Positions 9,231 to 34,044 of a stretch of DNA of 64,000 nucleotides are shown piece by piece. This DNA comes from an uncultured Candidatus Saccharibacteria bacterium (GTDB lineage: Bacteria; Patescibacteriota; UBA1384; JACPKC01). The DNA lies in assembly GCA_964423885.1 (NCBI GenBank), contig CAYRGD010000002.1, positions 18,128 through 82,127 of the forward strand, given 5' to 3'. Position 1 is the first letter of the stretch. The number at the start of each line of letters is the position of its first letter. The translations under genes were made by a program, and so were the position numbers. The notes under the pieces are model-generated. The model was given only the letters and a program-made list of their open reading frames with translations, ran no database searches and was not told where the DNA came from.

Positions 9231-9269
9231 AAAGAGCCCCGGCACTCGCCGGGGCTCTTTTGGTTTGTT
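9231..9269. terminator. bidirectional rho-independent terminator between convergent groEL and the 9268-10527 gene
   Basis: Perfect 11-bp stem (AGAGCCCCGGC / GCCGGGGCTCT), 4-nt loop, followed by TTTTGGTTTGTT on the + strand and an A-run on the other side. Confidence 0.8.
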
Positions 9270-10527: not shown

Positions 10528-10591
10528 GCCTACAGCATAGCAAACTGGGTTGTCCCTAGTGTTTTTGCAGGAGTGGACGTACACTATTCCT

Positions 10592-11257: not shown

Positions 11258-11363
11258 TACTATTCACCGTTACCTGCTGCGCACCACCCGTGCGCGATGG
11301 ATGCCGAGCTAGATATCCCTATCTACCATCGCTGTTCATCGAACCAAGGTAGAAGGATTATCT

Positions 11364-12662
11364 ATGGAATTCCAAGACAGCCGTTCCGCATTCGCACGAC
11401 CGAAACCGCACGGTTCCGGATCGCGCCGTGACCAGCATGGCCGCGGCAACCGCCAGCGCCCGGACCGACCACATACCGACCGCCGCGACCGTCCGCCTCG
11501 GAGCGGTGGCCGTCGCCCGTCGTCGGGCGGCAAGCGCTTCCAGGGCCAGTACATCGCGCCGGAACGCTACGTCCGGCAGGCGGTCGAAGCCGCTGCCGAG
11601 GCACCGTTCACGCCGGTCCACGCCTTCGGCGATTTCGGCTTTTTGCCCCAGTTGACGGCGACGCTCGCCCGCCGCGGATTCACCGCGCCCACGCCGATCC
11701 AGGACGGCGTCATCCCGCTTGTGCTGCAAGGCCACGACGTGATCGGGCTGGCCAACACCGGCACCGGCAAGACGGCCGCGTTCCTGCTGCCGCTGCTCCA
11801 TCGTCTCAAGACTAAGCAGCAAGCCGGGACCGCGCTTGTCATTACCCCGACCCGCGAGCTGGCAGTCCAGATCGAGCAGGAATTCCGCATGTTCAGCGAA
11901 GGCCTGGGGCTCCGGGCCGTGCTCTGTGTCGGCGGCATGAGCCTGCACAACCAGATCGCGAAGCTGCGCCAGTCGCCCCAGGTGGTGATCGGGACGCCGG
12001 GCCGCCTCAAGGACCTGCGCGACCGCGGCGCGCTCCGTTTCGACACGGTCGGCTTCTTCGTGCTCGACGAGGTCGACCGGATGCTCGACATGGGCTTCGT
12101 CCGCGACATCGAGGCGATCATGGCCCAGCTGCCGGCCGGTCGGCAGTCGGTCTGCTTGAGCGCCACCATCACGCCGGCGATCGAACAGCTGCTTGCCCGG
12201 TTGCTGAAGCAACCGAAAACGGTCTCGGTCCGCCGGGGCGACACCAGCCAGGCGATCGAGCAGGGGATCGTCGAGTACGGATCCGACCAAGAAAAGTTTG
12301 ACCTGCTGCTCGGCCTGCTCGCCAAGCCGGAATTCGGCAAGGTCCTGGTGTTCGGCCAGACGAAGTACGGCGTCCAGAAGCTGGCCAACCACCTGGGCAC
12401 CTACGGCCTCAAGGTCGAGGCGATCCACGGCAACAAATCCCAGTCGCAGCGCCAGCGCGCGCTCACGGCTTTCAAGGGCGGCCGGGTCTCGGCGCTCATC
12501 GCCACCGACGTCGCCGCCCGCGGCCTGGACATCCCCGACGTGAGCCACGTGATTAACTTCGACGAGCCGATGACGTACGATGAGTACGTACACCGGATCG
12601 GGCGTACCGGCAGGGCGGGCAAGCGCGGGTTCGCGCTCACCTTCGTCCCGGCCCGGCGCTAA
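11364..12662 (+). CDS. DEAD-box ATP-dependent RNA helicase with N-terminal Arg/Gly-rich region
   Basis: Q motif, GTGKT (motif I), DEVD (motif II), SAT (motif III) and HRIGRTGRAG (motif VI). Confidence 0.9.
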   Translation: MEFQDSRSAFARPKPHGSGSRRDQHGRGNRQRPDRPHTDRRDRPPRSGGRRPSSGGKRFQGQYIAPERYVRQAVEAAAEAPFTPVHAFGDFGFLPQLTATLARRGFTAPTPIQDGVIPLVLQGHDVIGLANTGTGKTAAFLLPLLHRLKTKQQAGTALVITPTRELAVQIEQEFRMFSEGLGLRAVLCVGGMSLHNQIAKLRQSPQVVIGTPGRLKDLRDRGALRFDTVGFFVLDEVDRMLDMGFVRDIEAIMAQLPAGRQSVCLSATITPAIEQLLARLLKQPKTVSVRRGDTSQAIEQGIVEYGSDQEKFDLLLGLLAKPEFGKVLVFGQTKYGVQKLANHLGTYGLKVEAIHGNKSQSQRQRALTAFKGGRVSALIATDVAARGLDIPDVSHVINFDEPMTYDEYVHRIGRTGRAGKRGFALTFVPARR

Positions 12663-13538: not shown

Positions 13539-13904
13539 ATGGCCGGCCTCGTCCTGATCCTGATCGGCGGGCTGTTCCTGCTCCATAACTTCGGCTGGGT
13601 CGACTGGGCGGTGTTCGGGTTCCTCTGGCAGTTCTGGCCGGTGATCCTCATCCTGCTTGGCTTGAAGCTGCTGTCGGCGGGTTCGTACCTGGGCCGACAG
13701 CTGGTCGGCATCGCCGGGACGCTGCTCGTCGTCTACCTGTTCCTGTACGCGGTCTACGCAACGAGCCCAGTGAGCCGCGATATCTTGGCGCCGCTCGCGC
13801 CGTACTTCCCGCACAAGGAAGAGCAACGGCAGGAGCAACCTGCGCCAGGCATACCGGTACCGACCCGTTCGTACTACCGCCTGCCGCCGGCGCGGACCTT
13901 CTGA
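13539..13904 (+). CDS. small membrane protein (LiaF-N/DUF5668-like), coupled to the PspC gene
   Basis: Hydrophobic N-terminus LVLILIGGLFLLHNFGWVDW resembles the LiaF-like N-terminal domain. Starts 2 nt after the PspC stop. Confidence 0.45.
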   Translation: MAGLVLILIGGLFLLHNFGWVDWAVFGFLWQFWPVILILLGLKLLSAGSYLGRQLVGIAGTLLVVYLFLYAVYATSPVSRDILAPLAPYFPHKEEQRQEQPAPGIPVPTRSYYRLPPARTF

Positions 13905-14212
13905 TGGCGGTACTAGCCACCTTCCTGCAAGCGGTCGCAGCCTGGATCTTCGGGTTCGTACTTGTCTCTATGCTCGGCATCGGCAACGGGGCCGAGATCG
14001 TGGCGATCCCGCTTGCAATGGCCTTCGCGATCTGGGCGATTGGCGGCATGTTCGACCGGCGCCTGGCGACCGGGCCGGTGTTCTGGCGGATCACGCTGGC
14101 TGCCTTCGTGGGCGCGCTCATCATGGCTACGGGCTGGCTGCGTATTCTCGGCATCTTCCTGCCCATGATTTTCGGTATCGTCACCTACCGCGCCCTTGCC
14201 CGGCGCCGGTAA
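13904..14212 (+). CDS. small hypothetical membrane protein (third gene of the PspC cluster)
   Basis: Three predicted TM helices. ATGA overlap with the upstream gene. Confidence 0.4.
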   Translation: MAVLATFLQAVAAWIFGFVLVSMLGIGNGAEIVAIPLAMAFAIWAIGGMFDRRLATGPVFWRITLAAFVGALIMATGWLRILGIFLPMIFGIVTYRALARRR

Positions 14213-14225
14213 GCAAAGGAGGCCT

Positions 14226-15020
14226 ATGGATCGCACATCGCTCAAGGACTTGGTGTCGCTCGCCGGGAGTACAGCGCTCGTGACCGGCGGGGCGATGGGG
14301 ATCGGCGAGGGGATCGCCTACCGCTTGGCCGAAGCCGGCGCGAACGTGGTGATCGCTGACCTCGACGACGAGGCCGCTGCGGCAGCGGTGGCCGCGTACC
14401 AAGCCAAGGGTTGGTCGGCCGCAGCCGTGCATCTCGACGTCGCCGATCCGGAATCGGTCGGTGCTGCGATTGCGTTCGCGGTCGAGACGTACGGCAGCCT
14501 CGATATCCTGGTCAACAACGCCGGCATCTACCCGCAGAAGCTGGTCATGGAGATGACGCCCGACGACTTCGACCGCGTGATCGCGGTCAACCTGCGCGGG
14601 GTGTACCTGATGACCCACGTCGCGGCTGCCCAGATGATCAAGCAGGGCAAAGGCGGTCGGATCGTCAACGTCACCTCGGTCGACGCGCTCCACCCGTCGA
14701 TGACCGGCCTTGCCCACTACGACGCAAGCAAGCACGGCGTCTGGGGGTTCACCAAGAACGTCGCGCTCGAGCTGGCCGAGCACAATATCCGCGTGAACGC
14801 GCTCGCGCCGGGCGGGATCAGTACGCCAGGCGTCGCGAAGTTGTCAGGCGGCGGCCAGGCGGACGAGTCCGTCATTAAAGCCTTCGAGGCCAAGATTCCC
14901 ATGCACCGGTTCGGCGAGCCCGACGATATCGGCCGGGCAGCGCTGTTCCTCGCATCCGATTTGAGTTCGTACATGACCGGCGCCCAGGTGGTCGTCGACG
15001 GCGGCGTCCTGCTGCGCTAG
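14226..15020 (+). CDS. SDR-family NAD(P)-dependent oxidoreductase (FabG-like)
   Basis: TGGAMGIGEGIA (TGxxxGIG cofactor motif), NNAG, catalytic YDASK (YxxxK). AAGGAGG RBS before the ATG at 14226. Confidence 0.85.
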   Translation: MDRTSLKDLVSLAGSTALVTGGAMGIGEGIAYRLAEAGANVVIADLDDEAAAAAVAAYQAKGWSAAAVHLDVADPESVGAAIAFAVETYGSLDILVNNAGIYPQKLVMEMTPDDFDRVIAVNLRGVYLMTHVAAAQMIKQGKGGRIVNVTSVDALHPSMTGLAHYDASKHGVWGFTKNVALELAEHNIRVNALAPGGISTPGVAKLSGGGQADESVIKAFEAKIPMHRFGEPDDIGRAALFLASDLSSYMTGAQVVVDGGVLLR

Positions 15021-15429: not shown

Positions 15430-16665
15430 TTACTGCGGCCGGAGTACGCGCATCGAGCGGACCTGGCTCGTGGCGTAACCGCGCCCGCCGCCCAAGGGAT
15501 CTTCCATGAGGTAGTGGTCGCCGGACTTGCCCTCGACCACCACGAAGTGCGACGAGCCGTCGGCGTTCAGGGCGCCCACCTGCGGTAGGTACACGCTCAG
15601 GATTACCGGGTGGTTCTGCGCGAGTTCGGCATCCACTGTCCGCCAGTTGACCGGCCCTTGGTCGGTGACCACAAGTCCGAGGCCGCTCACGATCGTCGAG
15701 ACGAAGGCGTTACCGTTGCGGTCGAACCAGCTGGCGTGGTTGGCGATATCCGGAGGCGTCACCCGGTGGCCGTAGAACGTCGAGACCATGGCGATCGAAG
15801 TGACCAGACAGCCGTAGTCATGGATCGTGAACGGGCTGTTGCCCAGGGTCGTCTGGTAGTTGAGCTGGTTGTAGGCCCAGCTGGCCGAGCTGCTGGTCGA
15901 GATGATGTCGGTGCCCCAGCGCGCGGTGGCGGTAAGCACGCTCAGCTTCGCCTCGATCGCGAGCACCTGGGCTTGCAGCGCCTTCGCCTCGGTCGAGGCG
16001 GACTGCTGTTCGGCTACGGCCTGGGCCTGTTCGGCGAGCGTCGTCGCTTTGGCGGCGGCGATCTGCGCCTTGGCGCTTTCCTGCTTCGCCTTGAGCGCGG
16101 TCAGCTCGTCCTGCTGTTCCTTGAGGGCGTCCTGCTCCTGCTTGAGCGCGGCCTGCTTGGTTTTGATCTCGCCGATCGCCAGTTCGAGCGACTCGCTGAT
16201 CGAATTGAAGTACTGCTGGCGGTTAATGAGGTCGGATACGCTGTTGCTCGTGATGGCGGCCAGCGTCGGGTCGAACCCGCCTTCCTCGTACAGGTTGCGC
16301 AGGAGCTCGTCTTTGTTCCGGTTCTGGGTGTCGAGCGCGGCCTGCGCCTCGGCCATGGCGGCCTGCTTGTCGGCGATATTCTTGGTCACATCGCCTATCG
16401 TCTGCTCGGTTTGGGAAAGCTCGGCCTGGGTATCGGCCAGTTGGGCAGTCAGTGACTGCGCCTGGCTCTTGAACTGCGCCGCGTCCTTGGCCGCCTGCGC
16501 TGCTTCCTGCTGCTTGCGGGCGGCTTCTTCCTTCAGCTTCTTCTGTTGGTTCTGCAGTTGCTGCACCTGGCTCGAGGTCAATGCCTCGGCCGGCGCGCTC
16601 CCGAGCGCGAAAAACGACACTCCAAGGAGTGCCAGTACTACGTAGACCCGGAATCTGTGTCCCAT
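15430..16665 (-). CDS. secreted coiled-coil protein with C-terminal C39-like (papain-fold) cysteine peptidase domain; PcsB-like cell-wall hydrolase candidate
   Basis: Signal peptide, ~220 aa of Q/A/K/E-rich heptad-like coiled coil, then a C-terminal domain with a Cys in the YGCLVTSIAMV context and a downstream His, typical of Peptidase_C39_2-like folds. Confidence 0.6.
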   Translation of the reverse strand: MGHRFRVYVVLALLGVSFFALGSAPAEALTSSQVQQLQNQQKKLKEEAARKQQEAAQAAKDAAQFKSQAQSLTAQLADTQAELSQTEQTIGDVTKNIADKQAAMAEAQAALDTQNRNKDELLRNLYEEGGFDPTLAAITSNSVSDLINRQQYFNSISESLELAIGEIKTKQAALKQEQDALKEQQDELTALKAKQESAKAQIAAAKATTLAEQAQAVAEQQSASTEAKALQAQVLAIEAKLSVLTATARWGTDIISTSSSASWAYNQLNYQTTLGNSPFTIHDYGCLVTSIAMVSTFYGHRVTPPDIANHASWFDRNGNAFVSTIVSGLGLVVTDQGPVNWRTVDAELAQNHPVILSVYLPQVGALNADGSSHFVVVEGKSGDHYLMEDPLGGGRGYATSQVRSMRVLRPQ

Positions 16666-16814
16666 CCCGCTCCTTTCGTGCGGAGGTACTATAGCACACT
16701 ATCTCTCGCGGTACCGCTGGTTTGCCGGTGGCCGGCTGTGGAAATACGGGAGTTTGACATTTCCCACGTCCGGAGTTTGTATAGACATACTATATAGAGG
16801 GAAAGGAGCGGGGC

Positions 16815-17675
16815 ATGAGGAACGTACTTGCGCGGATGCGCGGACTGGTTGCGGTCGGGGCTGTGGTGCTGTCTGGGGTGTTTCCGGTGCTGGGCGCTGC
16901 CCAGATCGCAACGGCCGCCACACCGCCGACTTGGGATGTCCGCGGGAACTACACGGTTAACTTCCACTGCCTGACCGGCTGTTCCGGCGATTGGCTGCAC
17001 AGCATGCACGTGGCGAGCGAGAACTTCGGCAACGGCAACTTCGCCGGTACGGGTTACTATATCCCGGATACGAGCTACACCTGGAATATGACTGGCAACA
17101 CGACCGGTGACGCCGTGGCGTTCACGATCGTGTACACCGGCACCGAGGCGGGCTCGACCTACAATCTTGTCGGCACGATCGACGAGGACGGCCGCATGGC
17201 TGGCACGGCGAGCGGCAACGGCGCAACGTTCACCTGGGACGCGCCGACCGGCATGGCGATCGAGGTCGTGGGCAACGGCGTGAAGCCGGCGGGCTGCACC
17301 GGCACCTATACGAGCGTGATCCAGGGCACGAACGGCAACGATACCTTGAAGGGCACGGCCCAGAACGACCTTATCTTCGGCTACGGCGGCAACGATAAGA
17401 TCACCGGCGCGAGCGGCAACGACTGCATCGTCGGCGGGGCAGGCAAGGATACGATTGACGGCGGCTCGGGCAGCGACGTCATCTACGGCAAGGGCGGCGC
17501 GGACACAATCGACGGCGGTGCGGGCGATGATACGATCTACGGCAACGCCGGTGACGACAAGCTGTCGGGCGGTTCGGGCAACGACACGATCGTGGGTGGC
17601 AACGGCACCGACACTGCCGACGGCGGCACCGGCACGGATTCGTGCAGCGCCGAAACCACCAAGAAGTGCGAGTAA
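16815..17675 (+). CDS. secreted protein with RTX-type (hemolysin-type) calcium-binding nonapeptide repeats
   Basis: Signal peptide, then a C-terminal run of GGxGxDx[IL]x repeats (GYGGNDKITGASGNDCIVGGAGKDTIDGGSGSDVIYGKGGADTIDGGAGDDTIYGNAGDDKLSGGSGNDTIVGG). GGAAAGGAG RBS. Confidence 0.7.
   Translation: MRNVLARMRGLVAVGAVVLSGVFPVLGAAQIATAATPPTWDVRGNYTVNFHCLTGCSGDWLHSMHVASENFGNGNFAGTGYYIPDTSYTWNMTGNTTGDAVAFTIVYTGTEAGSTYNLVGTIDEDGRMAGTASGNGATFTWDAPTGMAIEVVGNGVKPAGCTGTYTSVIQGTNGNDTLKGTAQNDLIFGYGGNDKITGASGNDCIVGGAGKDTIDGGSGSDVIYGKGGADTIDGGAGDDTIYGNAGDDKLSGGSGNDTIVGGNGTDTADGGTGTDSCSAETTKKCE
17380..17650 (+). repeat. tandem 27-bp (nonapeptide GGxGxDxIx) coding repeats inside the RTX-like gene
   Basis: About 10 consecutive nonapeptide units are visible in the translation. 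Confidence 0.6.
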
Positions 17676-17735
17676 TACGCTCCTAGTAATGGAACGCGGT
17701 GCCACCGGGCGCCGCGTTTTTGGTACTGTACCCCT

Positions 17736-19235
17736 ATGAAGCTCCAGCTGACCAAGTCCGACTACATGATGTACCTCAAGCACCCGGCGTGGCTGTGGCT
17801 CAAAAAGCACGACAAGTCGAAGCTGCCCCCGGTCGACGACAACTTGCAGGCCGTATTCGACACCGGCCACAAGTTCGAGCCGTACGCCGAGGCACGGTTC
17901 CCCGGCGGCACCACGCTCGGGTTCAACGACTACGGCCAGTACCTGTCGTTGCCGAAGCGCACCCAGGCCGCGCTCGACGAGGGCGCCGCGACCCTGTTCC
18001 AGGGGCGGGTGGAGCACGGCCAGCTGACCTGCATCTTCGACGTGCTCGAACGTACGGAGGGCGGCTATAATCTGTACGAGATTAAGTCCGCTACCCGCGA
18101 AAAGCGCGAGCACCTGCTCGACCTGGCGTTCCAGAAGCACGTGCTCGAACTGGCCGGACTGCCGGTCAAGCGCTGTAGCGTCATCGTCGTCAACCCGCGC
18201 TACGTCCGCCGCGGCGACATCGAGGCGCGCAAGCTCACCCGTGTGATCGACGTGACCGCCGAGGTCGACGCGCTCGCCGAGCAGACCAAGACGGATATCG
18301 CCGCCGCGCTCGCGGTCATGGACTCTCCGACCCGACCGGACATCTCGCCCCGCTACGCCCAGGGCTATTACGTCAAAGATTGGATCGAGATCTTCCTGTC
18401 GCTGTCGGCTACGGATACCGACCCGTACAGCATATACCGGCTGTCGTCGCTCAAGGGTGATCTGCTCGGAGAACTCGAGGACCAGGGGATCCAAAAGATC
18501 AGCCAGATCCCGCCGGATTTCCCGCTGCAGCACGCCAAGTACCAGCGGGTGGTCGAGCTGTCGCGCCTGGGTGCGCCGGTCATCGACGCGGCCAAGGTGG
18601 CGGATTTTCTACGCACCTTTACGTTCCCGCTCTACTTCTTCGACTACGAAACCATGAGCAGCATCATCCCGCCGTTCGACGGCACGCGCCCGTTCCAGCA
18701 GCTGCCCACCCAGTACTCGCTCCACATCCTGCCCGCGCCCGGCGCCGAGCTCGTCCACAAGGAATTCCTCCACCGCGATTCGAGCGACCCGTGCCTGCCA
18801 TTGCTCAAGCAGCTAGTGGAGGATATCGGGACGGAAGGGACCGTGCTCGCGTGGTACGACAAGTTCGAAAAGGGCGTCAACGAATCGCTCGGCGAGCTCC
18901 ACCCCGACTACAAAGACCGAATGACGGCCCTGAACGACCGCATCCTCGACCTGATGACCCCGTTCTCGCAGGGTTGGTACGAGGACTACCGGTTTTTGGG
19001 CAGCGCCAGTATCAAGAAGGTGCTGCCAGTACTGGTGCCCGACCTGACCTATAAAACGCTTACCGTACAGAACGGCGAAGCCGCCCAGCGTCTTTGGATG
19101 GAAACCGTGCTCGAGGGCAAGAATCCCGACGGCAAGGAGCAGCTGTTCAAAGATCTCTTGGAATACTGTGGCCTGGACACCTACGCGATGGTGCGGATTT
19201 ACCAAGCCCTACTTGAGCGGAGTGCAGGGGCGTAG
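17736..19235 (+). CDS. DUF2779-domain protein
   Basis: The N-terminus MKLQLTKSDYMMYLKHPAWLWL matches the DUF2779 signature (S[KR].Y..G.QC.K.LWL-like). ~500 aa is typical for this family. Preceded by a TGGTACTGT-N6-ATG leaderless-type promoter. Confidence 0.55.
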   Translation: MKLQLTKSDYMMYLKHPAWLWLKKHDKSKLPPVDDNLQAVFDTGHKFEPYAEARFPGGTTLGFNDYGQYLSLPKRTQAALDEGAATLFQGRVEHGQLTCIFDVLERTEGGYNLYEIKSATREKREHLLDLAFQKHVLELAGLPVKRCSVIVVNPRYVRRGDIEARKLTRVIDVTAEVDALAEQTKTDIAAALAVMDSPTRPDISPRYAQGYYVKDWIEIFLSLSATDTDPYSIYRLSSLKGDLLGELEDQGIQKISQIPPDFPLQHAKYQRVVELSRLGAPVIDAAKVADFLRTFTFPLYFFDYETMSSIIPPFDGTRPFQQLPTQYSLHILPAPGAELVHKEFLHRDSSDPCLPLLKQLVEDIGTEGTVLAWYDKFEKGVNESLGELHPDYKDRMTALNDRILDLMTPFSQGWYEDYRFLGSASIKKVLPVLVPDLTYKTLTVQNGEAAQRLWMETVLEGKNPDGKEQLFKDLLEYCGLDTYAMVRIYQALLERSAGA

Positions 19236-19258
19236 CCGAAAAGTGATATATTCAAGGC

Positions 19259-19624
19259 ATGGCTTCTGAATTGCAGGAACTAACACGGCGGATCACCGCG
19301 TTCCGTGACGCGCGGGACTGGAAACAGTTCCACAACCCCAAAGACCTAGCGTTATCGTTAGTGCTAGAAGCCGCCGAGGTGATGGAGCACTTCCAGTGGA
19401 AGTCACCGGACGAAATCGCAGACTACGTACAATCAAACAAAGAGGATATTGCCGAGGAGCTGGCTGACACGCTCTACTGGACGCTGCTGCTCGCACACGA
19501 TCTGGATATCGACCTGGCCGACGCTTTTTCGCGCAAGATGGCGAAGAACGATGCAAAGTATCCTGCCGATCAAGCCAAGGGGCGGCACGATAAATATACG
19601 GCGTACCGTCGATCCAAGATTTGA
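19259..19624 (+). CDS. MazG-like all-alpha nucleotide pyrophosphohydrolase
   Basis: 121 aa. EExxE and ELADxLYW motifs of the MazG/NTP-PPase fold (LEAAEVMEHFQW...EELADTLYWTLLLAHDLDIDL). Intermediate GC (~54%). Its stop overlaps the RBS/start region of mod. Confidence 0.7.
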   Translation: MASELQELTRRITAFRDARDWKQFHNPKDLALSLVLEAAEVMEHFQWKSPDEIADYVQSNKEDIAEELADTLYWTLLLAHDLDIDLADAFSRKMAKNDAKYPADQAKGRHDKYTAYRRSKI

Positions 19625-19635
19625 GGAGTCTCAAC

Positions 19636-21537
19636 ATGCAGAACGATGAACTAGGGCATCTGAGCGGCGAGTCTTGGTTGCCACAGCATGAGCTTACTAA
19701 GGAGCTGAAAGAAAAATTCCCAGGAACGTTTTCGGAAAATAAGGTTGATTGCAAAAAGCTCAAGCAAGAGTTGGGTGAGGAGTTTGATGATGCCCCAGAG
19801 CGTTACGGTTTAAGTTGGGCAGGAAAGCAAAACGTTTTTAACGTTATCCAAGAACCAACGACGAAAACACTAAAGGTTGATCGCGATGAATCGGTTGACT
19901 TTGACACAAGTCAGAATCTGTTTATCGAGGGCGATAACCTAGAAGTGCTCAAAGTTTTGCAGCGCTCGTACTACGGCAAAATAAAAATGATTTATATTGA
20001 TCCGCCGTACAATACGGGCAAGGATTTCATCTACTCAGATAAATGGCAACAATCACGTGGGGAGTACGAGCAGGAAGCTGGTATACGAAATGCGGACGGC
20101 AATGTGCATGAAGTAAGTGGCTTGCGGCAAAATACCCGCGACAGCGGTCATTTTCATAGCAACTGGCTCAATATGATGTATCCGCGTCTTTACCTTGCCC
20201 GCAATTTATTGCGACAAGATGGCGTGATCTTCGTCTCGATTGATGATAACGAAGTGCATAATTTGCGCATGATTATGAACGAGATTTTTGGAGAAGAGAA
20301 TTTCATTGACTGTTTGGTTTGGAAGAAACGGTATGGAGGTGGTTCGAAGGAAAAATACTTTGTAACCGTTCATGAATATATTCTGGTTTACGCAAGGGAC
20401 TTAAATAATATCCTTGATATTGAAGTGCCACTGAGCCAAGAGTCCATTGACCGTTATTACACCGAAAAAGACGATCAATTCGAAAAACGGGGCCCTTTTA
20501 GAACCCACCCCTTGGAAGCAACGAGAAGTATGGGAGATCGCCCTAATTTGATTTTTCCAATCAAGGCTCCAGATGGAACAAATATTCTTCCGGAGCGACA
20601 ATGGCTTTGGTCTAAAGAAAGAGTCGCAGAAGCCCAAGATGGGGGTGAGATAAAATTTTATAAGGCTCAAGGTGTTTGGAAAGTTTCCACTAAACAATAC
20701 CTGAAAGATGCTAATGGAAATCTCAGAAATGGGAAAATGCAATCATTAATAGACGGTATATATGGACAGTATGGCACAAATGAGATCATTGAATTAATGC
20801 AAAATGCACAAGTTTTTCCATTTTCAAAACCCACCAAACTAATAGAAGGCTTACTTTCTGCTAGCTCAAGTTCTAACGATATGATATTAGATTTCTTTGC
20901 TGGTTCAGGATCCGCAGCGCATGCTGCCGAGCAATTGAATGCCCGGGACGGCGGTAATCGAAAATGGATTGCAGTACAGTTGGCAGAAGAAGTCGATGAT
21001 ACGAGCGAAGCCAAGAAAGCCGGCTTCAAGAATATTGCCCAACTTTCACGCGAACGAATTCGTCGAGCTGGCAAGAAAATCAGGGGAAATTATAAAGACA
21101 ATATCAAGAAACGAAAAACCCCAATTGATCTTGGATTCAAGGCTTTAAAGCTCGAAGAGACCAACTTTAAGATTTGGGATTCAAGCGTTCGCGACAAGAA
21201 ACAACTTGAGCATCAAATGAAAGCGATGCTGAATGTTATTCGAGACGACGCAGATGAAGGGGATTTGCTGCTTGAATTGATGCTGAAAAGCGGCATTGAG
21301 CCAACAGAAAAACAAGAGAAAGTTGAAACCGAAAGCGGTGAATTTTACCGAATCGGATTGGGAGAGCTTATTATTTGCCTGGCTGACAAAGTCAGTGAAA
21401 AGTTATTTTCTGACATCGTCAACCAAAAACCATCTAAAGTCATATTCTTAGAAAGAGCTTTGCTCCAAAATGATGTGCTTAAATCCAACGTTTTACTTTC
21501 TGCTGAAAAGCTCAACCTAGAAATCAGGATTGTTTAG
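19636..21537 (+). CDS. mod: Type III restriction-modification system methyltransferase (Mod), N6-adenine, beta class
   Basis: IYIDPPYNTG (motif IV DPPY) precedes FFAGSGSAAHAA (motif I FxGxG), the beta-class order. ~630 aa is typical of Mod. GAGGAG RBS before the ATG at 19636. Confidence 0.9.
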   Translation: MQNDELGHLSGESWLPQHELTKELKEKFPGTFSENKVDCKKLKQELGEEFDDAPERYGLSWAGKQNVFNVIQEPTTKTLKVDRDESVDFDTSQNLFIEGDNLEVLKVLQRSYYGKIKMIYIDPPYNTGKDFIYSDKWQQSRGEYEQEAGIRNADGNVHEVSGLRQNTRDSGHFHSNWLNMMYPRLYLARNLLRQDGVIFVSIDDNEVHNLRMIMNEIFGEENFIDCLVWKKRYGGGSKEKYFVTVHEYILVYARDLNNILDIEVPLSQESIDRYYTEKDDQFEKRGPFRTHPLEATRSMGDRPNLIFPIKAPDGTNILPERQWLWSKERVAEAQDGGEIKFYKAQGVWKVSTKQYLKDANGNLRNGKMQSLIDGIYGQYGTNEIIELMQNAQVFPFSKPTKLIEGLLSASSSSNDMILDFFAGSGSAAHAAEQLNARDGGNRKWIAVQLAEEVDDTSEAKKAGFKNIAQLSRERIRRAGKKIRGNYKDNIKKRKTPIDLGFKALKLEETNFKIWDSSVRDKKQLEHQMKAMLNVIRDDADEGDLLLELMLKSGIEPTEKQEKVETESGEFYRIGLGELIICLADKVSEKLFSDIVNQKPSKVIFLERALLQNDVLKSNVLLSAEKLNLEIRIV

Positions 21538-22247
21538 TGCCTGTAAATTATCAACAAAAATTTCTAGATAGTATGGGTGAGGTGGATAAATTGGCATCCA
21601 CGCCCGATCTCATTAGGCAATTTGCCGTGGATGTACTTGTAAAATCTTTGGAGACGCCCGGAATCACCCATTCCGTAGCCAGTGCAATTCGGAACGCAAA
21701 AACTGCGTTGGAAAACATTAGAGATCAATCGATAGCAAATAGATATAGTGCCATCTATTCACAGATGTGCGTATTGGCGTCCTCCGCACTCGAGGTGACA
21801 GTAAAAGAATATTTTGAGAATTTAGCTTTTCATTCTGCCAACTTAAACAAATCTAATCTGAGCGACCTAAAAATTACCCTGAGGGAAGTTGTGGAAAACG
21901 ATCTGAGATTTGGAGGCAAACTCGGAAAGTTAATTCTTGATAAAGACAACTCAATAAATTTTCAGGATCTCGGTTCAATTAAAAGAGTTTTTGAAAAATA
22001 CTTCGAAAGAAAAATAGTTAGATTTGATAGCGAATTGGCGAAGAAGGCAAATTTTTATCTTCAAGCAAGGCATGTACTGGTTCATAAAGGCGGGGTAGTT
22101 GATCAGTCATTCCTGGACTCTAATTCTAAGTATCAATCAAATATCAAGAATTACGCTTTAGGGGAGCGCATTAAGTTAGACGTAACTGATTGGGTGGATA
22201 TTCGGGCAAGTTTTCTTCACATCATAGAAAGTGTGGTGGCAAGATGA
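21537..22247 (+). CDS. hypothetical all-alpha protein embedded between mod and res; candidate HEPN-like ribonuclease (R-x4-H motif RHVLVH near the C-terminus)
   Basis: 236 aa, same low GC as mod/res. GTG start overlaps the mod stop by 1 nt, and its TGA overlaps the res ATG (ATGA). Predicted helical throughout. The only conserved-looking motif is QARHVLVHKGG, which fits the HEPN R[NHQ]xxxH pattern. Confidence 0.6.
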   Translation: MPVNYQQKFLDSMGEVDKLASTPDLIRQFAVDVLVKSLETPGITHSVASAIRNAKTALENIRDQSIANRYSAIYSQMCVLASSALEVTVKEYFENLAFHSANLNKSNLSDLKITLREVVENDLRFGGKLGKLILDKDNSINFQDLGSIKRVFEKYFERKIVRFDSELAKKANFYLQARHVLVHKGGVVDQSFLDSNSKYQSNIKNYALGERIKLDVTDWVDIRASFLHIIESVVAR

Positions 22248-24952
22248 AGCTTCGATTTGATGCCAACCAGAACTATCAACTAGATGCTATTCAATCGGTT
22301 GTCGATTTATTTGAAGGCCAATTACTTCAGAGTGATAATCTTTCTGTAACAAAATCAAAGATATATCGTAGTGATTCGCGACAGACAGCGTTGGTTGAGG
22401 AGACTGCTGCAGCAAATAATCGATCAATCGATGTTGAACAGCTCTACCGAAATACACACAATATTCAAAAGCGGAATAACATTTCTCAGGACTATTGGTT
22501 GCCGGAATGGGATGAAGAGGGTTGGAATCAAGAAAAAATCTTTGAGGTAAAGCGATCATTTGAGAAGCACTTCACGGTCGAAATGGAAACGGGTACCGGA
22601 AAAACGTATGTGTATCTTCGTACAATCCACGAACTCTATAAAACGTATGGTTTCAAAAAATTTATTGTCGTTGTTCCGAGTGTTGCGATCAAAGAGGGGG
22701 TGCTAAAGAACTTAGAAATTACGCGGGAGCACTTTGCTCAACTGTACGGTAATCCTTCGCTCGATTGGTACGAGTGGAATTCAAAAAAGCGAGGCCAGGC
22801 CCGACAATTTGCAACCAACGATAGCTTGCAAATTATGGTTATCAATATCGATTCGTTTACGCGAGCGGAGAACATTATTAATCAGCAATCGGATTACGGC
22901 ACGCCGATTCAGTTTATTACAGCCACCAATCCAATTGTGATTGTCGATGAACCGCAGAACATGGAGACCGATACGCGGAAGGCTGCAATTGAATCACTCA
23001 ATCCGCTTTGTACACTTCGCTATTCGGCAACCCATAAAAATGAATATAACCTGCTGTATAAGCTCGATCCCGTGAAGGCGTACGATCTTGGCTTGGTGAA
23101 GAAGGTTGAGGTTGACTCAGTTGTTTCGGAGAATGCATACAATACTGCGTACATCAACGTAAAAAAGATTGCCAGGAAGGGTAAAAGTGCCTTGATTGCA
23201 CATGTCGAGGTAGATAAAGATGACGCAGCTGGTTTGCAACGTAAAGAGCTGAAGCTCGAAGTCGAAGATGACTTAGCTGAGATTACCGGACGCCAGATTT
23301 ACGAAGACTATGTTGTTACGAGGATTAGCTTGGAAGAAAAGTGCATCGAGTTTTCGAATGGTAAAGAATTTTGTATTGGCGAGATGCGAGAAGATCTGCG
23401 CGATGAAGTGGTGAAGTTCCAGATTGAACGAACGATAGAAAACCATTTTGAGAAAGAGAAGCGATTGCAACCGCTAGGAATTAAGGTGCTCTCCCTATTC
23501 TTTCTTGATCGAGTGGCAAATTACCGCATCCATTCAGCAGATGGCAACCAAAAAGGTAAGTTCGCAATGTGGTTTGAGGAAGCGTACGAGAGGATCAGAG
23601 CAAAACCGCAATTTGCAGGTGTGCTAGAGCACTCGGCTGATCAAGTGCACAATGGGTATTTCTCAAAGGATAGACGCGGAAATGTTAGTGACACATCTGG
23701 CACAGCCAGGGCTGATGACGATACTTATGGGCTCATTATGAAGGACAAGGAACGTTTGTTGAGTTTGAACGAGCCACTGCGATTCATTTTTAGTCATTCG
23801 GCGTTGCGCGAGGGTTGGGATAATCCAAACGTCTTTCAAATCTGTACGCTCAATGAGACGCACGAGGATATAAAAAAGCGTCAAGAAATCGGTCGAGGCA
23901 TGCGTTTGCCAGTTAATGCTAATGGCGAGCGCGTGTTTGATGAAAACGTCAATATCCTGACCGTTATTGCAAATGAAAGCTATGAAGACTTTGCATGCCA
24001 TCTTCAGGCTGAGATTCAGGATGAAACAGGTGTCGTTTTTGCGAGTAATCGAATTAAGGATAAGAGAAAGCGGCGGACTGCGGCATTGAAAAAGAACTAT
24101 CAGCTTGATGAGAATTTTCAAGAACTATGGAGCCGAATCGACAAAAAAACTCGCTACCATGTGACGTTCGATTCTCAGGACTTAGTACGTAAAACGTGCG
24201 AAATGCTGAGCGACGTAATTATTCGAAAAGCAAAGGTAGTAAGTACGAAGGCATTGCTTAACATGGACGAAGGCGGCATTGCGACCGAGGTAAGATCAAC
24301 TGCGGTACGGCGAGATGACGGTACGCAAAAACAACTTCCTATTCCGGATGTATTGGGGAAGATTCAGCAACATACAAAGTTAACGCGAGCGACGATATTT
24401 TCGATATTAGATCGGTCTGGAATGGTAGAAAAAATTTTGGTGAATCCTCAGCAAGTTATTGACGAAGTGACTAGAGTGATTAATCAAGTAATGAAAGCAT
24501 TGATGGTCGACGGTATTAAATATGAGCGCTTAGATGGTGAAGTATGGGAGCTGCAACGCTTTAAGGATGAGGAACTAGAAAGTTATTTAGAAAATCTTGT
24601 TGAGGTGCAAAAACAAGAAAAGACGCTATATGACCATATCCTTGTAGATTCAGACGTCGAGCGCTCTTTCGCTCATGAGTGTGAAGCTCGTGATGATGTG
24701 AGGTTTTACTTCAAGTTGCCGAGTTGGTTCAAAATCGATACGCCACTTGGAAGCTACAACCCCGATTGGGCGCTAGTGTTTGAGAATGATGAACGAATAT
24801 ATTTTGTCGCCGAAACGAAGGGCACTAGTGATTCATCTCGTATTTCTGAGATTGAGCGATTGAAAATTAAGAGCGGTCGGAAGCACTTTGAAGTGCTGGA
24901 CGGCGTTGAATTCAAGGCGCCAGTTGAGAATCTGTCTCAAGTAGTAGATTGA
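22244..24952 (+). CDS. res: Type III restriction enzyme Res subunit (SF2 helicase plus C-terminal PD-(D/E)xK nuclease)
   Basis: Helicase motif I-like (TGTGKT), motif II (IVIDEPQN), and a C-terminal PDW...VAETKG nuclease motif. ~900 aa. ATGA-coupled to the upstream gene. Confidence 0.9.
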   Translation: MKLRFDANQNYQLDAIQSVVDLFEGQLLQSDNLSVTKSKIYRSDSRQTALVEETAAANNRSIDVEQLYRNTHNIQKRNNISQDYWLPEWDEEGWNQEKIFEVKRSFEKHFTVEMETGTGKTYVYLRTIHELYKTYGFKKFIVVVPSVAIKEGVLKNLEITREHFAQLYGNPSLDWYEWNSKKRGQARQFATNDSLQIMVINIDSFTRAENIINQQSDYGTPIQFITATNPIVIVDEPQNMETDTRKAAIESLNPLCTLRYSATHKNEYNLLYKLDPVKAYDLGLVKKVEVDSVVSENAYNTAYINVKKIARKGKSALIAHVEVDKDDAAGLQRKELKLEVEDDLAEITGRQIYEDYVVTRISLEEKCIEFSNGKEFCIGEMREDLRDEVVKFQIERTIENHFEKEKRLQPLGIKVLSLFFLDRVANYRIHSADGNQKGKFAMWFEEAYERIRAKPQFAGVLEHSADQVHNGYFSKDRRGNVSDTSGTARADDDTYGLIMKDKERLLSLNEPLRFIFSHSALREGWDNPNVFQICTLNETHEDIKKRQEIGRGMRLPVNANGERVFDENVNILTVIANESYEDFACHLQAEIQDETGVVFASNRIKDKRKRRTAALKKNYQLDENFQELWSRIDKKTRYHVTFDSQDLVRKTCEMLSDVIIRKAKVVSTKALLNMDEGGIATEVRSTAVRRDDGTQKQLPIPDVLGKIQQHTKLTRATIFSILDRSGMVEKILVNPQQVIDEVTRVINQVMKALMVDGIKYERLDGEVWELQRFKDEELESYLENLVEVQKQEKTLYDHILVDSDVERSFAHECEARDDVRFYFKLPSWFKIDTPLGSYNPDWALVFENDERIYFVAETKGTSDSSRISEIERLKIKSGRKHFEVLDGVEFKAPVENLSQVVD

Positions 24953-25030
24953 ATCTTGCACATAATAATTGGAGATCTAGTAGAAGGATCCTCTGGATAA
25001 AGTTGTTCCTTTCTTTTACACTTCGCCCTC

Positions 25031-25999
25031 ATGCACTACGGATTCTGGGAGAAGCTCCCGCGGCCATTTTTCGTGCTTGCGCCGATGGCGAACGTAACCG
25101 ATACGGTCTTTCGCCAGATTATCGTGGCGCATAGTCGGCCGGACGTGCTCTTTACCGAATTCGTGTCGTGCGACGGGCTCATGTCGCGCGGGTATGACGC
25201 GCTCATCCGCGACTTGTCGTACGCGCCGGTGGAGCGCCCGATCGTGGCCCAGGTCTTCGGGGCGACGCCCAAGAATTTTTACGGTACCGGCAAGCTCGTG
25301 GCCGAGCTGGGGTTCGACGGCTTGGATATCAACATGGGGTGCCCGGACAAGGCGGTGGTAAAGCAGGGTGCGGGTGCGGGGCTGATCAAAACGCCGTCGC
25401 TGGCGCTCGAACTCATCGCTGCGGCGCGCGAAGGGACGAAGGCGGGCGGACGCGAGCTGCCAATTTCGGTCAAAACCCGCCTAGGCGGCAGTGTCGACGA
25501 GGCTGACCGCTGGATCCCGCAGTTGTTGTCGGCCACGATCCCGGCGCTCACCGTGCACTGTCGGACGCGCAAGGAAATGTCGAAGGTACCCGCGCACTGG
25601 GAGCGGATGAAGGACATCGTGGCGATGGCGGCTGGTATCGGCACAATCATTGTCGGCAACGGCGACGTGCTGTCGGTGGCCGACGGCCGCGCGAAAGCCG
25701 AGGCGAGCGGTGTCGACGGGCTCATGCTCGGGCGGGCAATCTTCGGCAACCCGTGGCTGTTCCGCGACGGCTACGCGCCGAGCGTCCGCGAACGGCTTAC
25801 CGTGATGGTCGAGCACACGCGGCTCTTTGCCAGCACCTGGGGCGACACCAAAAACTTTGAAACCATGAAGAAGCACTACAAGGCGTATGCCAATGGCTTT
25901 CCCGGCGCGCACGAACTGCGGGCCGAGCTGATGACGCTCCACGACGCCGAGGCTGTTGCCACGACGGTCGAGCGGTTCCTTGCGGGCGTAGCGGCCTAG
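25031..25999 (+). CDS. dus: tRNA-dihydrouridine synthase
   Basis: FVLAPMANVTDTVFRQ, GLDINMGCP, and an FMN-binding TIM-barrel pattern typical of the DusB family. Confidence 0.9.
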   Translation: MHYGFWEKLPRPFFVLAPMANVTDTVFRQIIVAHSRPDVLFTEFVSCDGLMSRGYDALIRDLSYAPVERPIVAQVFGATPKNFYGTGKLVAELGFDGLDINMGCPDKAVVKQGAGAGLIKTPSLALELIAAAREGTKAGGRELPISVKTRLGGSVDEADRWIPQLLSATIPALTVHCRTRKEMSKVPAHWERMKDIVAMAAGIGTIIVGNGDVLSVADGRAKAEASGVDGLMLGRAIFGNPWLFRDGYAPSVRERLTVMVEHTRLFASTWGDTKNFETMKKHYKAYANGFPGAHELRAELMTLHDAEAVATTVERFLAGVAA

Positions 26000-26235
26000 T
26001 AGTTGTAGATCGAGCCGCCGGCCCCGCCGACTGCGGCGCTCGGGGTGTCTCTGGTAGTCGGCGTGGCACTGTACGGATCGGCTGCCGGGTGTTTGGCCTT
26101 CCAGGCCGTGAAGCCGGCGTAGTACACGATGCCGCCGATCACCAGGTAGAGCAGTACCCAGGCCCAGACCGGCATGCCCGCCTTGCCGTAGCCGTACGCG
26201 CCGCCTGCCGGCTCGGGTTTCGTTGTGTCCGCCAT
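25996..26235 (-). CDS. small hypothetical membrane protein
   Basis: AAAGGAGGGG RBS before the ATG (MADTTKPEP). One TM helix (VWAWVLLYLVIGGIVYYAGF). Overlaps the 3' end of dus by 4 bp on the opposite strand. Confidence 0.4.
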   Translation of the reverse strand: MADTTKPEPAGGAYGYGKAGMPVWAWVLLYLVIGGIVYYAGFTAWKAKHPAADPYSATPTTRDTPSAAVGGAGGSIYNY

Positions 26236-31387: not shown

Positions 31388-31470
31388 GTATCCATGCTAC
31401 CACCACCGGCCCGCTCGACATACTCCGGCAGGTGCTGCGATACTGGAGCCAACCAAGGAGGTACCGCTTC

Positions 31471-34044
31471 ATGACGCACCGACGACTACTTGCGCTGGTA
31501 TTGCTCGTATCCCTCCAAGCACTAGGTCTCCAGATCACAGCCCCGAGCCGTGACGACACTGCTACGGCCGCCGCCCAATCCGCCTTCGCCAACCTCCCCC
31601 TCGCCTTCGAACCCAACCTCGGCCAGGCCGAGGATTCGGTGGATTTTGTAGTCCATCACGGCCAAGCCGTGACCGCCTTCTCCAGTACCGGTACCACGAC
31701 AAGTGTGGGCGGCACGCAGGTGACGATGTCGCTTACCGGTGCTGCGGAACAGCAATTCGCCGGTACCGACGAACTCCCGAGCAAGACGAACTACTTTCTG
31801 GGGAACGACCAGTCGAAGTGGCAATCGGATATCCCAAACTACGGCAAGCTGCTGGCCAAGGACGTGTATCCCGGCATCGACCTCGCTTACTACGGGACGA
31901 ACTCACAGCTGGAACACGACTTCATCGTGGCCCCGGGCGTCGATTACAAGCAGATCGCCTTCGGCTTTGCCGGGCAGGACGATCTGTCGCTCGATGACAA
32001 CGGGAACCTTGTCCTCAAAGCGGGCGACGAGATGCTGACCCTCAACGCCCCGGTCACGTACCAGACCGACACCAATTCGAAACACACCATCCCGAGCAGC
32101 TTCGAGCTCAACGGCGGCACCGTCACGGTCGCGGTGGCTGACGCGTATGATCCCGCGAAGCCACTGATCATCGACCCGGTGTTGTCGCTTGTGTATTCGA
32201 CGTATTTGGGAGGGAACGGGGATGATCTTGGCAATGCTATCGCAGTCGATCCTTCTGGAAACACGTATGCGATTGGTCAGACCACCTCGGCCGACTTTCC
32301 GACCAGTTCACCATTTCAAGGTAGTAAGGGCGCGGGGATTGACGTTTATATTACAAAACTCAATCCGACCGGTTCTTCCCTCGTGTATGCAACATATTTG
32401 GGCGGGAGTGGGCATGACATTGGTCGTGGGATCGCGGTGGATATTTCAGGAAACGCCTACGTCACAGGGCAGACCGGCTCGACCAATTTCCCAACCAGTT
32501 CGCCGTTCCAGGCGGCAAATGCAGGCGCGACCAATGTCTTTGTTGCTAAGCTCAATGCGGCTGGTTCAGCGCTGACGTACTCAACCTATCTCGGCGGTAG
32601 TGCTAATGATCTTGGATACAGTATTGCTATCGATGCGGGTGGCAGCGCATATATAACTGGGTCTGCTGGGTCGGCCAACTTTCCAACTGCCTCGCCGTTT
32701 CAAGGAAGTAGGGTGGGTGGCCCAGATGCCTTCGTGACGAAATTGAACGCGGCTGGTTCAGCGCTTGTCTATTCGACATATTTAGGCGGGTCGTTAACTG
32801 ATCAAGGAGAGAGGATCGCAGTAGATAGTGGCGGGAATGCTTATGTAGCCGGCTGGTCGGATAGTAGCAATTTCCCCACAGCGTCACCCATTCAGGCAAG
32901 CAAGGCGGGGAACGATGATGCGATTGTTTTCAAATTCAATCCGTCCGGCTCATCGCTCGTCTATTCAACGTATTTGGGCGGTACGGCGTTTGATCATGGG
33001 TATGGCTTGGCAATTGACAGCTCGGGCAGCGCATATGTAGTCGGCAGAACTGCGTCGACGAACTTCCCAACCGTATCGCCGTTTCAGAGCACGAATGCTG
33101 GCGGCGCAGATGACATTTTCATCACGAAGGTAAATGCTGCTGGCTCAGTCTGGGCATATTCAACGTACCTTGGTGGAAGTGGGGATGACTGGGGGCGTGG
33201 GGTCGACCTTGATACGTCAGGTAACTTCTATGTAACCGGCTGGACTTCGTCGACAAACTTCCCAACGGCGTCTGCGCTTCAGAATACGAATGGCGGCGGT
33301 AGCTATGATGTGTTCGTCGCGAAATTCAATGCGGCTGGTTCGTCGCTCGGCTACTCAACCTACCTCGGTGGCAGTGGAGATGAGCTTGGATATGGGATCG
33401 CGCTTGGTTTAAATGGCAACGCAAACGTCATCGGCCACACTGCGTCAACCAATTTTCCGACCAGCTTGCCGTATCAATCCACGAATAACGGTGGGGCATA
33501 CGATGCCTTCGTGTTCCAACTCACCGAACACAATGTGGATCTTGAAGCCCGTGTGAACCCGACCCTCACCTTCACCGTCGGGAGTACGAGTTGCGCGCTC
33601 GGCGCACTCTCGACCACCCAGACCCGGCAGTGCACGTACACAATGTCGGCAGCCACGAACGGGCAATCCGGGTACGGTATTTCGTACCTGCCAGCTGCGA
33701 CGTTAACCAGTGGCGGGAATACGATTACAGCGCTAGGTTCTCCGACTGCCAGTACGCTCAATACCGAACAGTTCGGGTTGAACTTGGCTGCGAACACCGC
33801 TGCTGGCTCGCATACGGCAACGGACTTCGGGGCGGCTCCGAGCGGCGGCGTTGGTGCTGCGGCAGCCAACTACGCTACGGCCAACTCGTTCAAGTTCGCC
33901 ACTGCCGGTGAGCAAGTCGCCTCGTCGGCCGGTCCGTCGCTTGCGACCACGTACACCGTGTCGACCATTGCCAACATCGGGAACACGACGGAGGCCGGGG
34001 TATATAGCACGATGGTGACGTTCAATGTGGTGGCAGGGTACTAG
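31471..34044 (+). CDS. secreted beta-propeller-repeat (SBBP-type) protein, ~858 aa
   Basis: Signal peptide (MTHRRLLALVLLVSLQALG), then ~10 tandem ~50-aa repeats of YSTYLGGSGDDxGxGIAVDxSGNAYVTGxTxSxNFPTxSPFQ. AAGGAGG RBS before the ATG at 31471. Confidence 0.75.
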   Translation: MTHRRLLALVLLVSLQALGLQITAPSRDDTATAAAQSAFANLPLAFEPNLGQAEDSVDFVVHHGQAVTAFSSTGTTTSVGGTQVTMSLTGAAEQQFAGTDELPSKTNYFLGNDQSKWQSDIPNYGKLLAKDVYPGIDLAYYGTNSQLEHDFIVAPGVDYKQIAFGFAGQDDLSLDDNGNLVLKAGDEMLTLNAPVTYQTDTNSKHTIPSSFELNGGTVTVAVADAYDPAKPLIIDPVLSLVYSTYLGGNGDDLGNAIAVDPSGNTYAIGQTTSADFPTSSPFQGSKGAGIDVYITKLNPTGSSLVYATYLGGSGHDIGRGIAVDISGNAYVTGQTGSTNFPTSSPFQAANAGATNVFVAKLNAAGSALTYSTYLGGSANDLGYSIAIDAGGSAYITGSAGSANFPTASPFQGSRVGGPDAFVTKLNAAGSALVYSTYLGGSLTDQGERIAVDSGGNAYVAGWSDSSNFPTASPIQASKAGNDDAIVFKFNPSGSSLVYSTYLGGTAFDHGYGLAIDSSGSAYVVGRTASTNFPTVSPFQSTNAGGADDIFITKVNAAGSVWAYSTYLGGSGDDWGRGVDLDTSGNFYVTGWTSSTNFPTASALQNTNGGGSYDVFVAKFNAAGSSLGYSTYLGGSGDELGYGIALGLNGNANVIGHTASTNFPTSLPYQSTNNGGAYDAFVFQLTEHNVDLEARVNPTLTFTVGSTSCALGALSTTQTRQCTYTMSAATNGQSGYGISYLPAATLTSGGNTITALGSPTASTLNTEQFGLNLAANTAAGSHTATDFGAAPSGGVGAAAANYATANSFKFATAGEQVASSAGPSLATTYTVSTIANIGNTTEAGVYSTMVTFNVVAGY
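32190..33480 (+). repeat. tandem ~150-bp coding repeats (beta-propeller blades) within the SBBP gene
   Basis: Repeated YSTYLGG...NFPT...KLN..GS units are visible in the translation. The DNA copies are divergent but periodic. Confidence 0.6.

Follow-up and report, generated by a model that had tools for sequence, protein, structure and literature searches.

In restriction-modification (R-M) systems of the EcoP15I type, a dimer of the modification subunit Mod recognises a short asymmetric site of 5–6 bp and methylates adenine on one strand, forming N6-methyladenine (m6A). The Mod2Res complex with the restriction subunit Res slides on DNA driven by ATP and cuts about 25–27 bp from the site, and two inversely oriented, unmethylated sites are needed for the cleavage. 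In this study, we analysed a Type III locus in a stretch of 64,000 nucleotides (hereafter the window) on contig CAYRGD010000002.1 of an uncultured Candidatus Saccharibacteria bacterium, a member of the Patescibacteria, or candidate phyla radiation (CPR), among which a GC content of about 64% is unusually high. The genes mod and res of this locus lie in a low-GC island between a MazG-like gene and dus, and one embedded gene, called emb here, stands between them.

R-M operons are also known to carry accessory RNases. At least 16 clades of HEPN proteins were linked to R-M operons by Anantharaman et al. 2013 (PMC3710099). On the pattern of PrrC/EcoprrI, the R-M enzyme was proposed to hold such an RNase in check, and neutralisation of restriction by a phage to set it free (PMC3710099); PrrC has been described as an R-M guardian (PMC12707154). 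We consider it likely that the island described below is a Type III R-M island gained by horizontal transfer and that it includes a HEPN-like accessory gene. From its sequence, Emb is predicted to be a HEPN-type RNase, encoded by an accessory 'guardian' or abortive-infection (Abi) gene.

Low-GC island and its Type III genes

The GC profile showed a plateau of about 0.64 on both sides of the locus, a trough of 0.35–0.46 from about 19.6 to 25.0 kb, and a rise at dus. When GC was calculated in 1-kb steps, the five values between 20 and 25 kb lay 7.8–9.8 standard deviations (sd) under the mean of the other 58 (0.639, sd 0.025). GC at third codon positions (GC3) was 0.42 in mod, 0.38 in emb and 0.44 in res, against 0.86 in the DUF2779 gene on the left and 0.83 in dus on the right. 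A two-state likelihood fit placed the edges of the island at 19,590 and 25,023, the left edge being about 19,590–19,625. The fall in GC from about 65% to about 40% between about 19.6 and 24.95 kb with an abrupt return at dus, which had been noticed in a first-pass annotation of the window, was thus borne out by the GC profile, GC3 and the likelihood edges. That annotation had also proposed a sliding-window GC and tetranucleotide analysis; the tetranucleotide distance from the rest of the window peaked at 0.74 in the island (median 0.136), making the island the sole outlier in 64 kb. The existence of a low-GC island was therefore confirmed, but not the extent of about 5.8 kb assigned to it: the strictly low-GC block is about 5.4 kb long and consists of mod, emb, res and a tail of 71 nucleotides (nt), and the MazG-like gene is intermediate in composition.

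The tail, at 24,953–25,023 on the plus strand (GC 0.38), is the AT-rich 3' end of the island and now serves as the upstream region of dus. Ahead of dus, the window resembled the best-matching relative (L002, described below) only from about 8 nt before the dus ATG onwards, in agreement with the likelihood edge at 25,023. At 24,953–25,030, AT-rich island sequence thus comes within 8 nt of the dus start. No plus-strand terminator-like site was found between res and dus, and promoter and terminator scans gave results no better than those from shuffled sequence. With the tail nearly touching the dus start and no such site after res, dus may now rely for its transcription on sequences inside the island or on transcripts that run on from the R-M operon.

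Subsequently, the proteins encoded in the island were compared with known Type III enzymes. The gene mod (19,636–21,537, plus strand) encodes the modification/specificity subunit, a predicted beta-class N6-adenine methyltransferase of 633 amino acids (aa). It matched PADLOC MTase_III over its full length (3.7e-187), Pfam N6_N4_Mtase (1.5e-37), Helicobacter pylori Mod (6k0w, 1.5e-66) and EcoP15I Mod (4zcf_A, 2.5e-64), and the motif DPPY at residue 122 stands ahead of FAGSG at 421. The gene res (22,244–24,952, plus strand) encodes the restriction subunit of 902 aa, with a superfamily 2 (SF2) helicase/ATPase and a C-terminal PD-(D/E)xK endonuclease. Its matches were PADLOC REase_III (2.2e-279), Pfam ResIII (1.5e-16), DEAD and RE_endonuc (2.5e-37), and EcoP15I Res (4zcf_C, 7.7e-58), and the motifs TGTGKT116, DEPQ235, QEIGRGMR547 and PDW...ETK840 were present. 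Both genes are on the plus strand with mod first, which is the canonical order with one inserted gene, emb. No phase-variable simple-sequence repeats were found in mod or res. Judged from these matches, the pair is a complete and intact EcoP15I-type Mod and Res with all catalytic motifs present, as the first-pass annotation had proposed. Like known Type III enzymes, Mod of the window would recognise a short asymmetric site and place m6A on one strand, and its Mod2Res complex would slide with ATP as the power source and cleave about 25–27 bp from the site, given two inverse unmethylated sites.

The genes of the locus are tightly coupled. The MazG-like gene (19,259–19,624, plus strand) encodes a 121-aa protein matching Pfam MazG-like (8.7e-16), predicted to be an all-alpha NTP pyrophosphohydrolase. 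Its stop codon ends at 19,624, the mod ATG starts at 19,636 after a gap of 11 nt, and a GGAG sequence lies 7 nt before this ATG and overlaps the MazG stop. The mod stop overlaps the GTG start of emb (21,537–22,247, plus strand) by 1 nt, and the emb stop overlaps the res ATG by 4 nt (ATGA).

Variable slot and origin of the cassette

Relatives of the locus were sought through its right flank, and the 80 best genome matches to Dus were examined. All of them were Patescibacteria/CPR metagenome-assembled genomes (MAGs), with a top identity of 66%, and the GTDB species genomes searched seem to include no close representative of the host species. The locus of the best match, L002 (GC about 0.50), has the order DUF2779-RTX-dus with 91 nt between RTX and dus, and contains none of MazG, mod, emb and res; its DUF2779 orthologue near dus is 58% identical to that of the window. 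The comparison between DUF2779 and dus in relatives, which had been put forward in the first-pass annotation, hence gave a locus free of R-M genes, whose arrangement suggests an empty-site-like state. The order of the two flanking genes is swapped, with RTX before DUF2779 in the window (16,815–19,235) and DUF2779 before RTX in L002 (5–1834), all on the same strand as dus. This swap suggests a local rearrangement beside the insertion site.

Another relative was found on a 17.6-kb ENA contig (ERZ27297709), which holds the closest MazG homologue (83% identity). It encodes LiaF-TM, SDR, two unknown genes, DUF433, DUF5615 and MazG, followed by HsdM overlapping the MazG stop, Fic, an unknown gene, HsdS, a 237-aa gene without a Pfam domain, and HsdR. 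LiaF-TM followed by SDR also stands upstream in the window (13,539–13,904 and 14,196–15,020, respectively). We read this contig as a syntenic relative that would carry a Type I system instead of the Type III system in the slot after MazG. Because L002 has no R-M genes and a Type I R-M follows MazG in the ENA contig, the position appears to be a variable defence slot. The 237-aa gene was also considered as a possible Emb homologue; Emb-family members of similar length were looked up by cluster, and none of them came from that contig.

The closest Res proteins among 5.8 billion sequences were 61–63% identical and mostly from CPR. In the loci of close Res homologues, mod and res were directly adjacent and followed by a serine recombinase gene (L087, 10,787–12,076), or adjacent inside a conjugative element with TraG, TraC, PrgI and a relaxase (L089, 11,639–18,754), or separated by two other unknown genes (L088). 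The serine recombinase and the conjugative element, which accompany the two closest Res homologues, are plausible vectors of this R-M subfamily in CPR-like genomes. IMG/VR viral contigs carrying the Type III family of the window numbered 115. AT-rich R-M genes (GC 0.38–0.46) were also the rule in the related loci examined, and in four of five cases their GC lay below that of the flanks. The cassette therefore has a composition of its own, which is extreme here only since the host is so GC-rich.

Taken together, these findings point to the following course of events. A 5.4-kb mod-emb-res cassette would have reached a GC-rich Patescibacteria (CPR) genome by horizontal transfer and settled in the variable slot between the MazG-like gene and dus. 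Its source would have been richer in AT, and was probably a different CPR organism or a mobile element of one. Because no integrase or att marks were found, it probably arrived by recombination. Indeed, no integrase or recombinase was found among the neighbouring genes of the island, the tRNA scan and Rfam gave no match, and the direct or inverted repeats found at the flanks did not exceed 9 nt, a length close to chance; the lack of an integrase, a tRNA and a flanking direct repeat had already been pointed out in the first-pass annotation. The foreign, acquired nature of the island, which it had also claimed, agrees with the sharp edges, GC3, the tetranucleotides and the absence from L002. It had further supposed an old insertion by homologous replacement of a variable locus. 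The variable locus and the replacement are supported by L002 and by the Type I contig, but 'old' fits poorly because the GC3 of the cassette is completely unameliorated.

Next, the position of the MazG-like gene was considered. Its GC (0.54) and GC3 (0.66) are intermediate, and such GC3 values also occur among the lowest of the host genes (GroES 0.70, Ham1 0.68, others 0.64–0.70). The family is very large, with more than 7,900 homologues at 65–83% identity, mostly from CPR. When the window gene and a homologous MazG were compared as nucleotides, the mean column identity was 80% over the aligned region, flanks included, and the similarity stopped at the 3' end of the gene. In one locus (L147, 5001–9196), a MazG homologue overlaps a Schlafen-group-3-like helicase gene and lies near trypsin and HEPN genes, and in the loci L141 and L143–146 no defence genes stand downstream of it. 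The MazG-like gene is translationally coupled to a downstream defence module in three of the five sampled lineages, namely Type III in the window, Type I with Fic in the ENA contig and the Schlafen-like helicase in L147. This coupling could reflect a CPR defence hotspot or a functional link, and a role of the MazG-like protein in defence is possible. Literature searches found no prior description of a linkage between MazG and R-M. Rather than being part of the cargo, the MazG-like gene is probably a conserved gene that anchors the variable defence slot on the left.

Two other readings of the block were weighed against acquisition of the mod-emb-res cassette. If the low-GC block were a chimera of assembly or binning, or native compositional heterogeneity, there would be no real insertion, and it is true that the source is a MAG and that the exact proteins occur in just one sample. 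However, positions 16,000–26,134 of the window, both junctions included, recur at 100% identity in a second listed assembly, namely a 10,135-nt Logan contig (sample SRR12712864). Frames and ribosome-binding sites are also continuous from MazG into mod, the island tail reaches to 8 nt ahead of dus, and the GC3 shift of more than 0.4 is confined to the three defence genes, a classic signature of horizontal transfer. The chimera was rejected on account of the identical second assembly, and we regard this whole reading as barely credible. In the other reading, all four genes from MazG-like to res were acquired together, as the first-pass annotation had held, with the NTP pyrophosphatase as a defence component that would, for example, clear modified dNTPs of phages. 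The short MazG-mod gap with the Shine-Dalgarno sequence overlapping the MazG stop, the GC3 of the MazG-like gene under the 0.83–0.86 of its neighbours, and the defence-linked contexts, with homologues overlapping hsdM and a Schlafen-like helicase gene, are in its favour. Nevertheless, its GC3 is far from that of the R-M genes and inside the host range, no MazG gene was found in the related Type III loci examined, two other MazG contexts contain no defence genes, and the family is CPR-conserved and housekeeping-like; an anchor of a hotspot would equally adjoin different R-M types. A joint origin of the four genes is therefore doubtful. The single acquired cassette stands for mod, emb and res, and the tight coupling stands for all four, but the membership of the MazG-like gene does not. 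Two points weigh against the acquisition of mod-emb-res from an AT-richer CPR source into a variable slot: the Type I contig is known from its gene table alone and not from its DNA, and the donor is unsampled, the best Res match being just 63% identical.

The flanks and the more distant neighbours were as follows. The left host flank, outside the island, is the DUF2779 gene (17,736–19,235, plus strand; Pfam DUF2779, 1e-37), whose product has a RecB/Cas4-like N-terminal nuclease region with weak Cas4 and TM0106 RecB-like matches. The right host flank, likewise outside, is dus (25,031–25,999, plus strand), encoding a tRNA dihydrouridine synthase (Pfam Dus, 5.5e-54). Just upstream of DUF2779, a peptidase C39-like gene on the minus strand adjoins the gene of a 286-aa protein with RTX calcium-binding repeats (15,430–17,675), and the two may be a pair of a secreted protein and its processing enzyme. 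A second, milder GC dip (GC 0.55–0.58, GC3 0.64) was observed at 31,432–34,044 and corresponds to the gene of an 870-aa SBBP beta-propeller / DUF7948 protein, which may have a separate origin and be exposed at the cell surface.

The embedded gene and its possible function

Emb, to which the first-pass annotation had given no identity, consists of 236 aa and was modelled as an all-alpha protein by AlphaFold2 (pLDDT 89.8). It has 82 close homologues, and a profile search of 1.84 billion representatives returned 796 clusters (50% identity) at E ≤ 1e-3. When 53 diverse members were aligned (mean column identity 29%), R178 and H183 of the window protein were the only invariant columns. Residues 178–183 read RHVLVH and the family pattern is RHxxVH, that is, Rx4H, which falls under the HEPN signature Rx4-6H. 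Furthermore, Pfam HEPN_RiboL-PSP was matched by 14 of the 53 members (E ≤ 0.1; best 1.5e-7), no other family recurred, and the matches covered nearly the whole profile, the Rx4H region included. One of ten distant members checked individually reached 19.4 bits to the same profile. No match to Emb was found in PADLOC, NCBIfam or PHROGs, no helix-turn-helix (HTH) or other DNA-binding domain was detected with Pfam and NCBIfam, and no NTPase domain with these two or PADLOC. A PDB sequence search with the family profile gave no meaningful match, and a fold search recovered no solved HEPN structure. Literature searches found no prior description of the family. From these comparisons, the Emb family looks like a separate, unnamed sister clade of PF18735 with about 800 clusters at 50% identity.

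The genomic contexts of Emb homologues were examined in 54 loci, 49 from a metagenome scan and 5 from contig look-ups. A Type III res gene stands directly downstream in 31 of them, most of which belong to one oral Saccharibacteria lineage and are not independent. In three (L092, L093 and L129), the Emb homologue lies between hsdS and hsdR of Type I operons, with two HsdR subfamilies represented; in L092 an extra 263-aa open reading frame (ORF) intervenes between it and hsdR. In two identical loci (L091 and L096, 5980–7988), 14 nt separate the Emb homologue from a downstream gene for a 417-aa PIN_8 protein, a PIN-like nuclease, and no R-M genes lie in the vicinity. Only five of the 54 have neither a restriction gene nor a PIN-like gene while offering at least 2 kb of downstream sequence. 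In Saccharibacteria such as CP058260, the order is Fic, mod, DUF4145 (Swt1-like HEPN), Abi_C, a 65-aa ORF, the Emb homologue and res. These TM7 loci (L082–L084, about 3400–11,550) thus hold three HEPN-type genes and the 65-aa ORF between mod and res, with Fic just upstream, and form a very dense multi-toxin R-M operon. Kinship of Emb with the Abi_C or DUF4145 proteins of the TM7 locus was considered and rejected, as hhalign showed no relationship.

The mod|res junction itself was surveyed in 73 viral-contig loci of the Type III family of the window with mod upstream. In 51 of these, mod and res were adjacent, and in 17 more than 600 nt lay between them. The inserts encoded RhuM (twice), a Schlafen AlbA_2/HATPase_c_4 protein, a YhcG/DUF1016 PD-(D/E)xK nuclease, a PLD-like protein, Bro-N and a Mutator-family transposase. 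No Emb homologue was found among these inserts, nor on any of the IMG/VR viral contigs. These results show that the mod|res junction is a general accessory slot and that Emb is one of many genes using it.

We propose a mechanism for Emb by analogy with PrrC/EcoprrI and with the HEPN-R-M associations (PMC3710099). Emb would be a HEPN RNase co-translated with Res; the intact R-M complex would keep it silent, and a phage disabling restriction would release it, after which it would cleave tRNA or mRNA and abort the infection. This guardian mechanism is offered tentatively, as somewhat less than probable. Several observations weigh against it or against the HEPN assignment on which it builds. The window Emb matches HEPN_RiboL-PSP with 19.7 bits (E 8.7e-4), below the gathering cut-off of 28.4 bits. 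Some Emb homologues do not stand beside any R-M (L085, L086 and L115). In addition, identity to the window Emb is about the same (40–44%) whether a homologue comes from a Type I, a Type III or another context, which argues against tight co-evolution with one R subunit and suggests that emb moves between R-M types. The difference from PrrC and RloC in size and domains, taken up below, is a further such point.

The main rival is an autonomous selfish toxin or stand-alone Abi gene, lodged in a permissive mod|res or hsdS|hsdR junction and gaining expression and linkage there, without cross-talk with the R-M enzyme. The junction accepts many unrelated passengers, including an insertion sequence (IS), Emb homologues move freely among Type I, Type III, PIN-associated and unlinked contexts, and no sensor or NTPase domain was detected in Emb, all of which would be expected of such a gene. 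On the other hand, a HEPN toxin made constitutively and on its own would be expected to kill the cell, and emb of the window has no conserved antitoxin-like partner at its side. The position is also specific, being immediately upstream of the R gene and often overlapping it in two R-M types, which is more regular than random lodging would give. We rate this explanation as possible, though rather unlikely. Emb might instead be a non-catalytic helical adaptor or regulator for the assembly, specificity or expression of the restriction subunit, and the translational coupling of emb to res, together with the failure of the fold search to recover a HEPN structure and the sub-threshold Pfam match, would fit this. 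However, invariance is limited to the Arg and His of Rx4H, which points to catalysis; neither an HTH nor any other DNA-binding domain was detected; and the closest Res homologues work without such a gene (L087 and L089). An adaptor thus appears quite improbable.

Comparison with described systems

The locus shares with EcoP15I and EcoP1I (PDB 4ZCF) the mod-then-res order, the beta-class m6A Mod with DPPY before FxGxG, and a Res that combines the SF2 helicase motifs TGTGKT, DEPQ and QxxGRGxR with a C-terminal PD...ExK nuclease, the matches being full-length. It differs in that its proteins are distant in sequence (E about 1e-58 to 1e-64), in the extra 236-aa gene between mod and res, in its CPR host, and in a mod without phase-variable repeats. 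The Type III loci of oral Saccharibacteria TM7 (CP058260, 'oral taxon 488') belong to the same R-M subfamily, with Mod 45% and Res 53% identical, and carry an Emb homologue (42%) immediately upstream of res and overlapping it. In contrast to the window, where Emb is alone and a MazG-like gene lies upstream, three more genes stand between mod and the Emb homologue in TM7, and Fic lies upstream.

Among HEPN families, the RiboL-PSP-HEPN family (PF18735), distantly related to AbiD/AbiF and Abi2, is the sole Pfam family recurrently matched by the Emb family. Nevertheless, the window Emb and most family members score under its gathering cut-off, and Emb has neither the L-PSP fusion nor the ParB operon listed as contexts for PF18735 (PMC3710099). 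PrrC of the EcoprrI Type Ic R-M system, and RloC, resemble Emb in carrying the HEPN signature Rx4-6H and in being encoded in an R-M operon directly before the restriction-subunit gene, and some Emb homologues occupy exactly the hsdS|hsdR position of Type I operons. Yet Emb, with its 236 aa, lacks the N-terminal ABC-ATPase/Rad50-like sensor domain and is not a member of that family; it has no sequence similarity to PrrC, and the emb of the window belongs to a Type III system. The analogy between Emb and PrrC is one of position and logic only.

The locus documents that CPR/Patescibacteria lineages whose GC differs greatly have exchanged a Type III R-M subfamily, with an empty-site-like locus for comparison. 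It further shows that accessory toxins (RhuM, Schlafen, PD-(D/E)xK and HEPN) repeatedly settle in the mod|res junction of this subfamily, in parallel with Type I operons. Because members of the Emb family stand just upstream of restriction-subunit genes in two R-M types, this family, unannotated in PADLOC, NCBIfam and PHROGs, is a testable candidate for a PrrC-like back-up defence without the ATPase sensor of PrrC. A bolder view, which we think unlikely as a whole, is that Emb represents an unnamed, widespread family of minimal HEPN 'restriction guardians' on Type I and Type III R subunits that would read the state of the R subunit directly without an ATPase sensor. The MazG-like protein would in addition be a recurrent leader or CPR hotspot anchor, or would contribute to defence, for example by hydrolysing modified dNTPs of phages. 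If the minimal guardians and a MazG-like contribution to defence were both true, the locus would be a three-layer system. Compared with what has been described, the locus is a textbook example of an R-M cassette gained by horizontal transfer and seated where defence genes vary, and defence islands of this kind are well known. Modest novelty lies only in the unnamed Emb family and in the location of its genes, which stand just upstream of the R genes in Type I as well as Type III operons.

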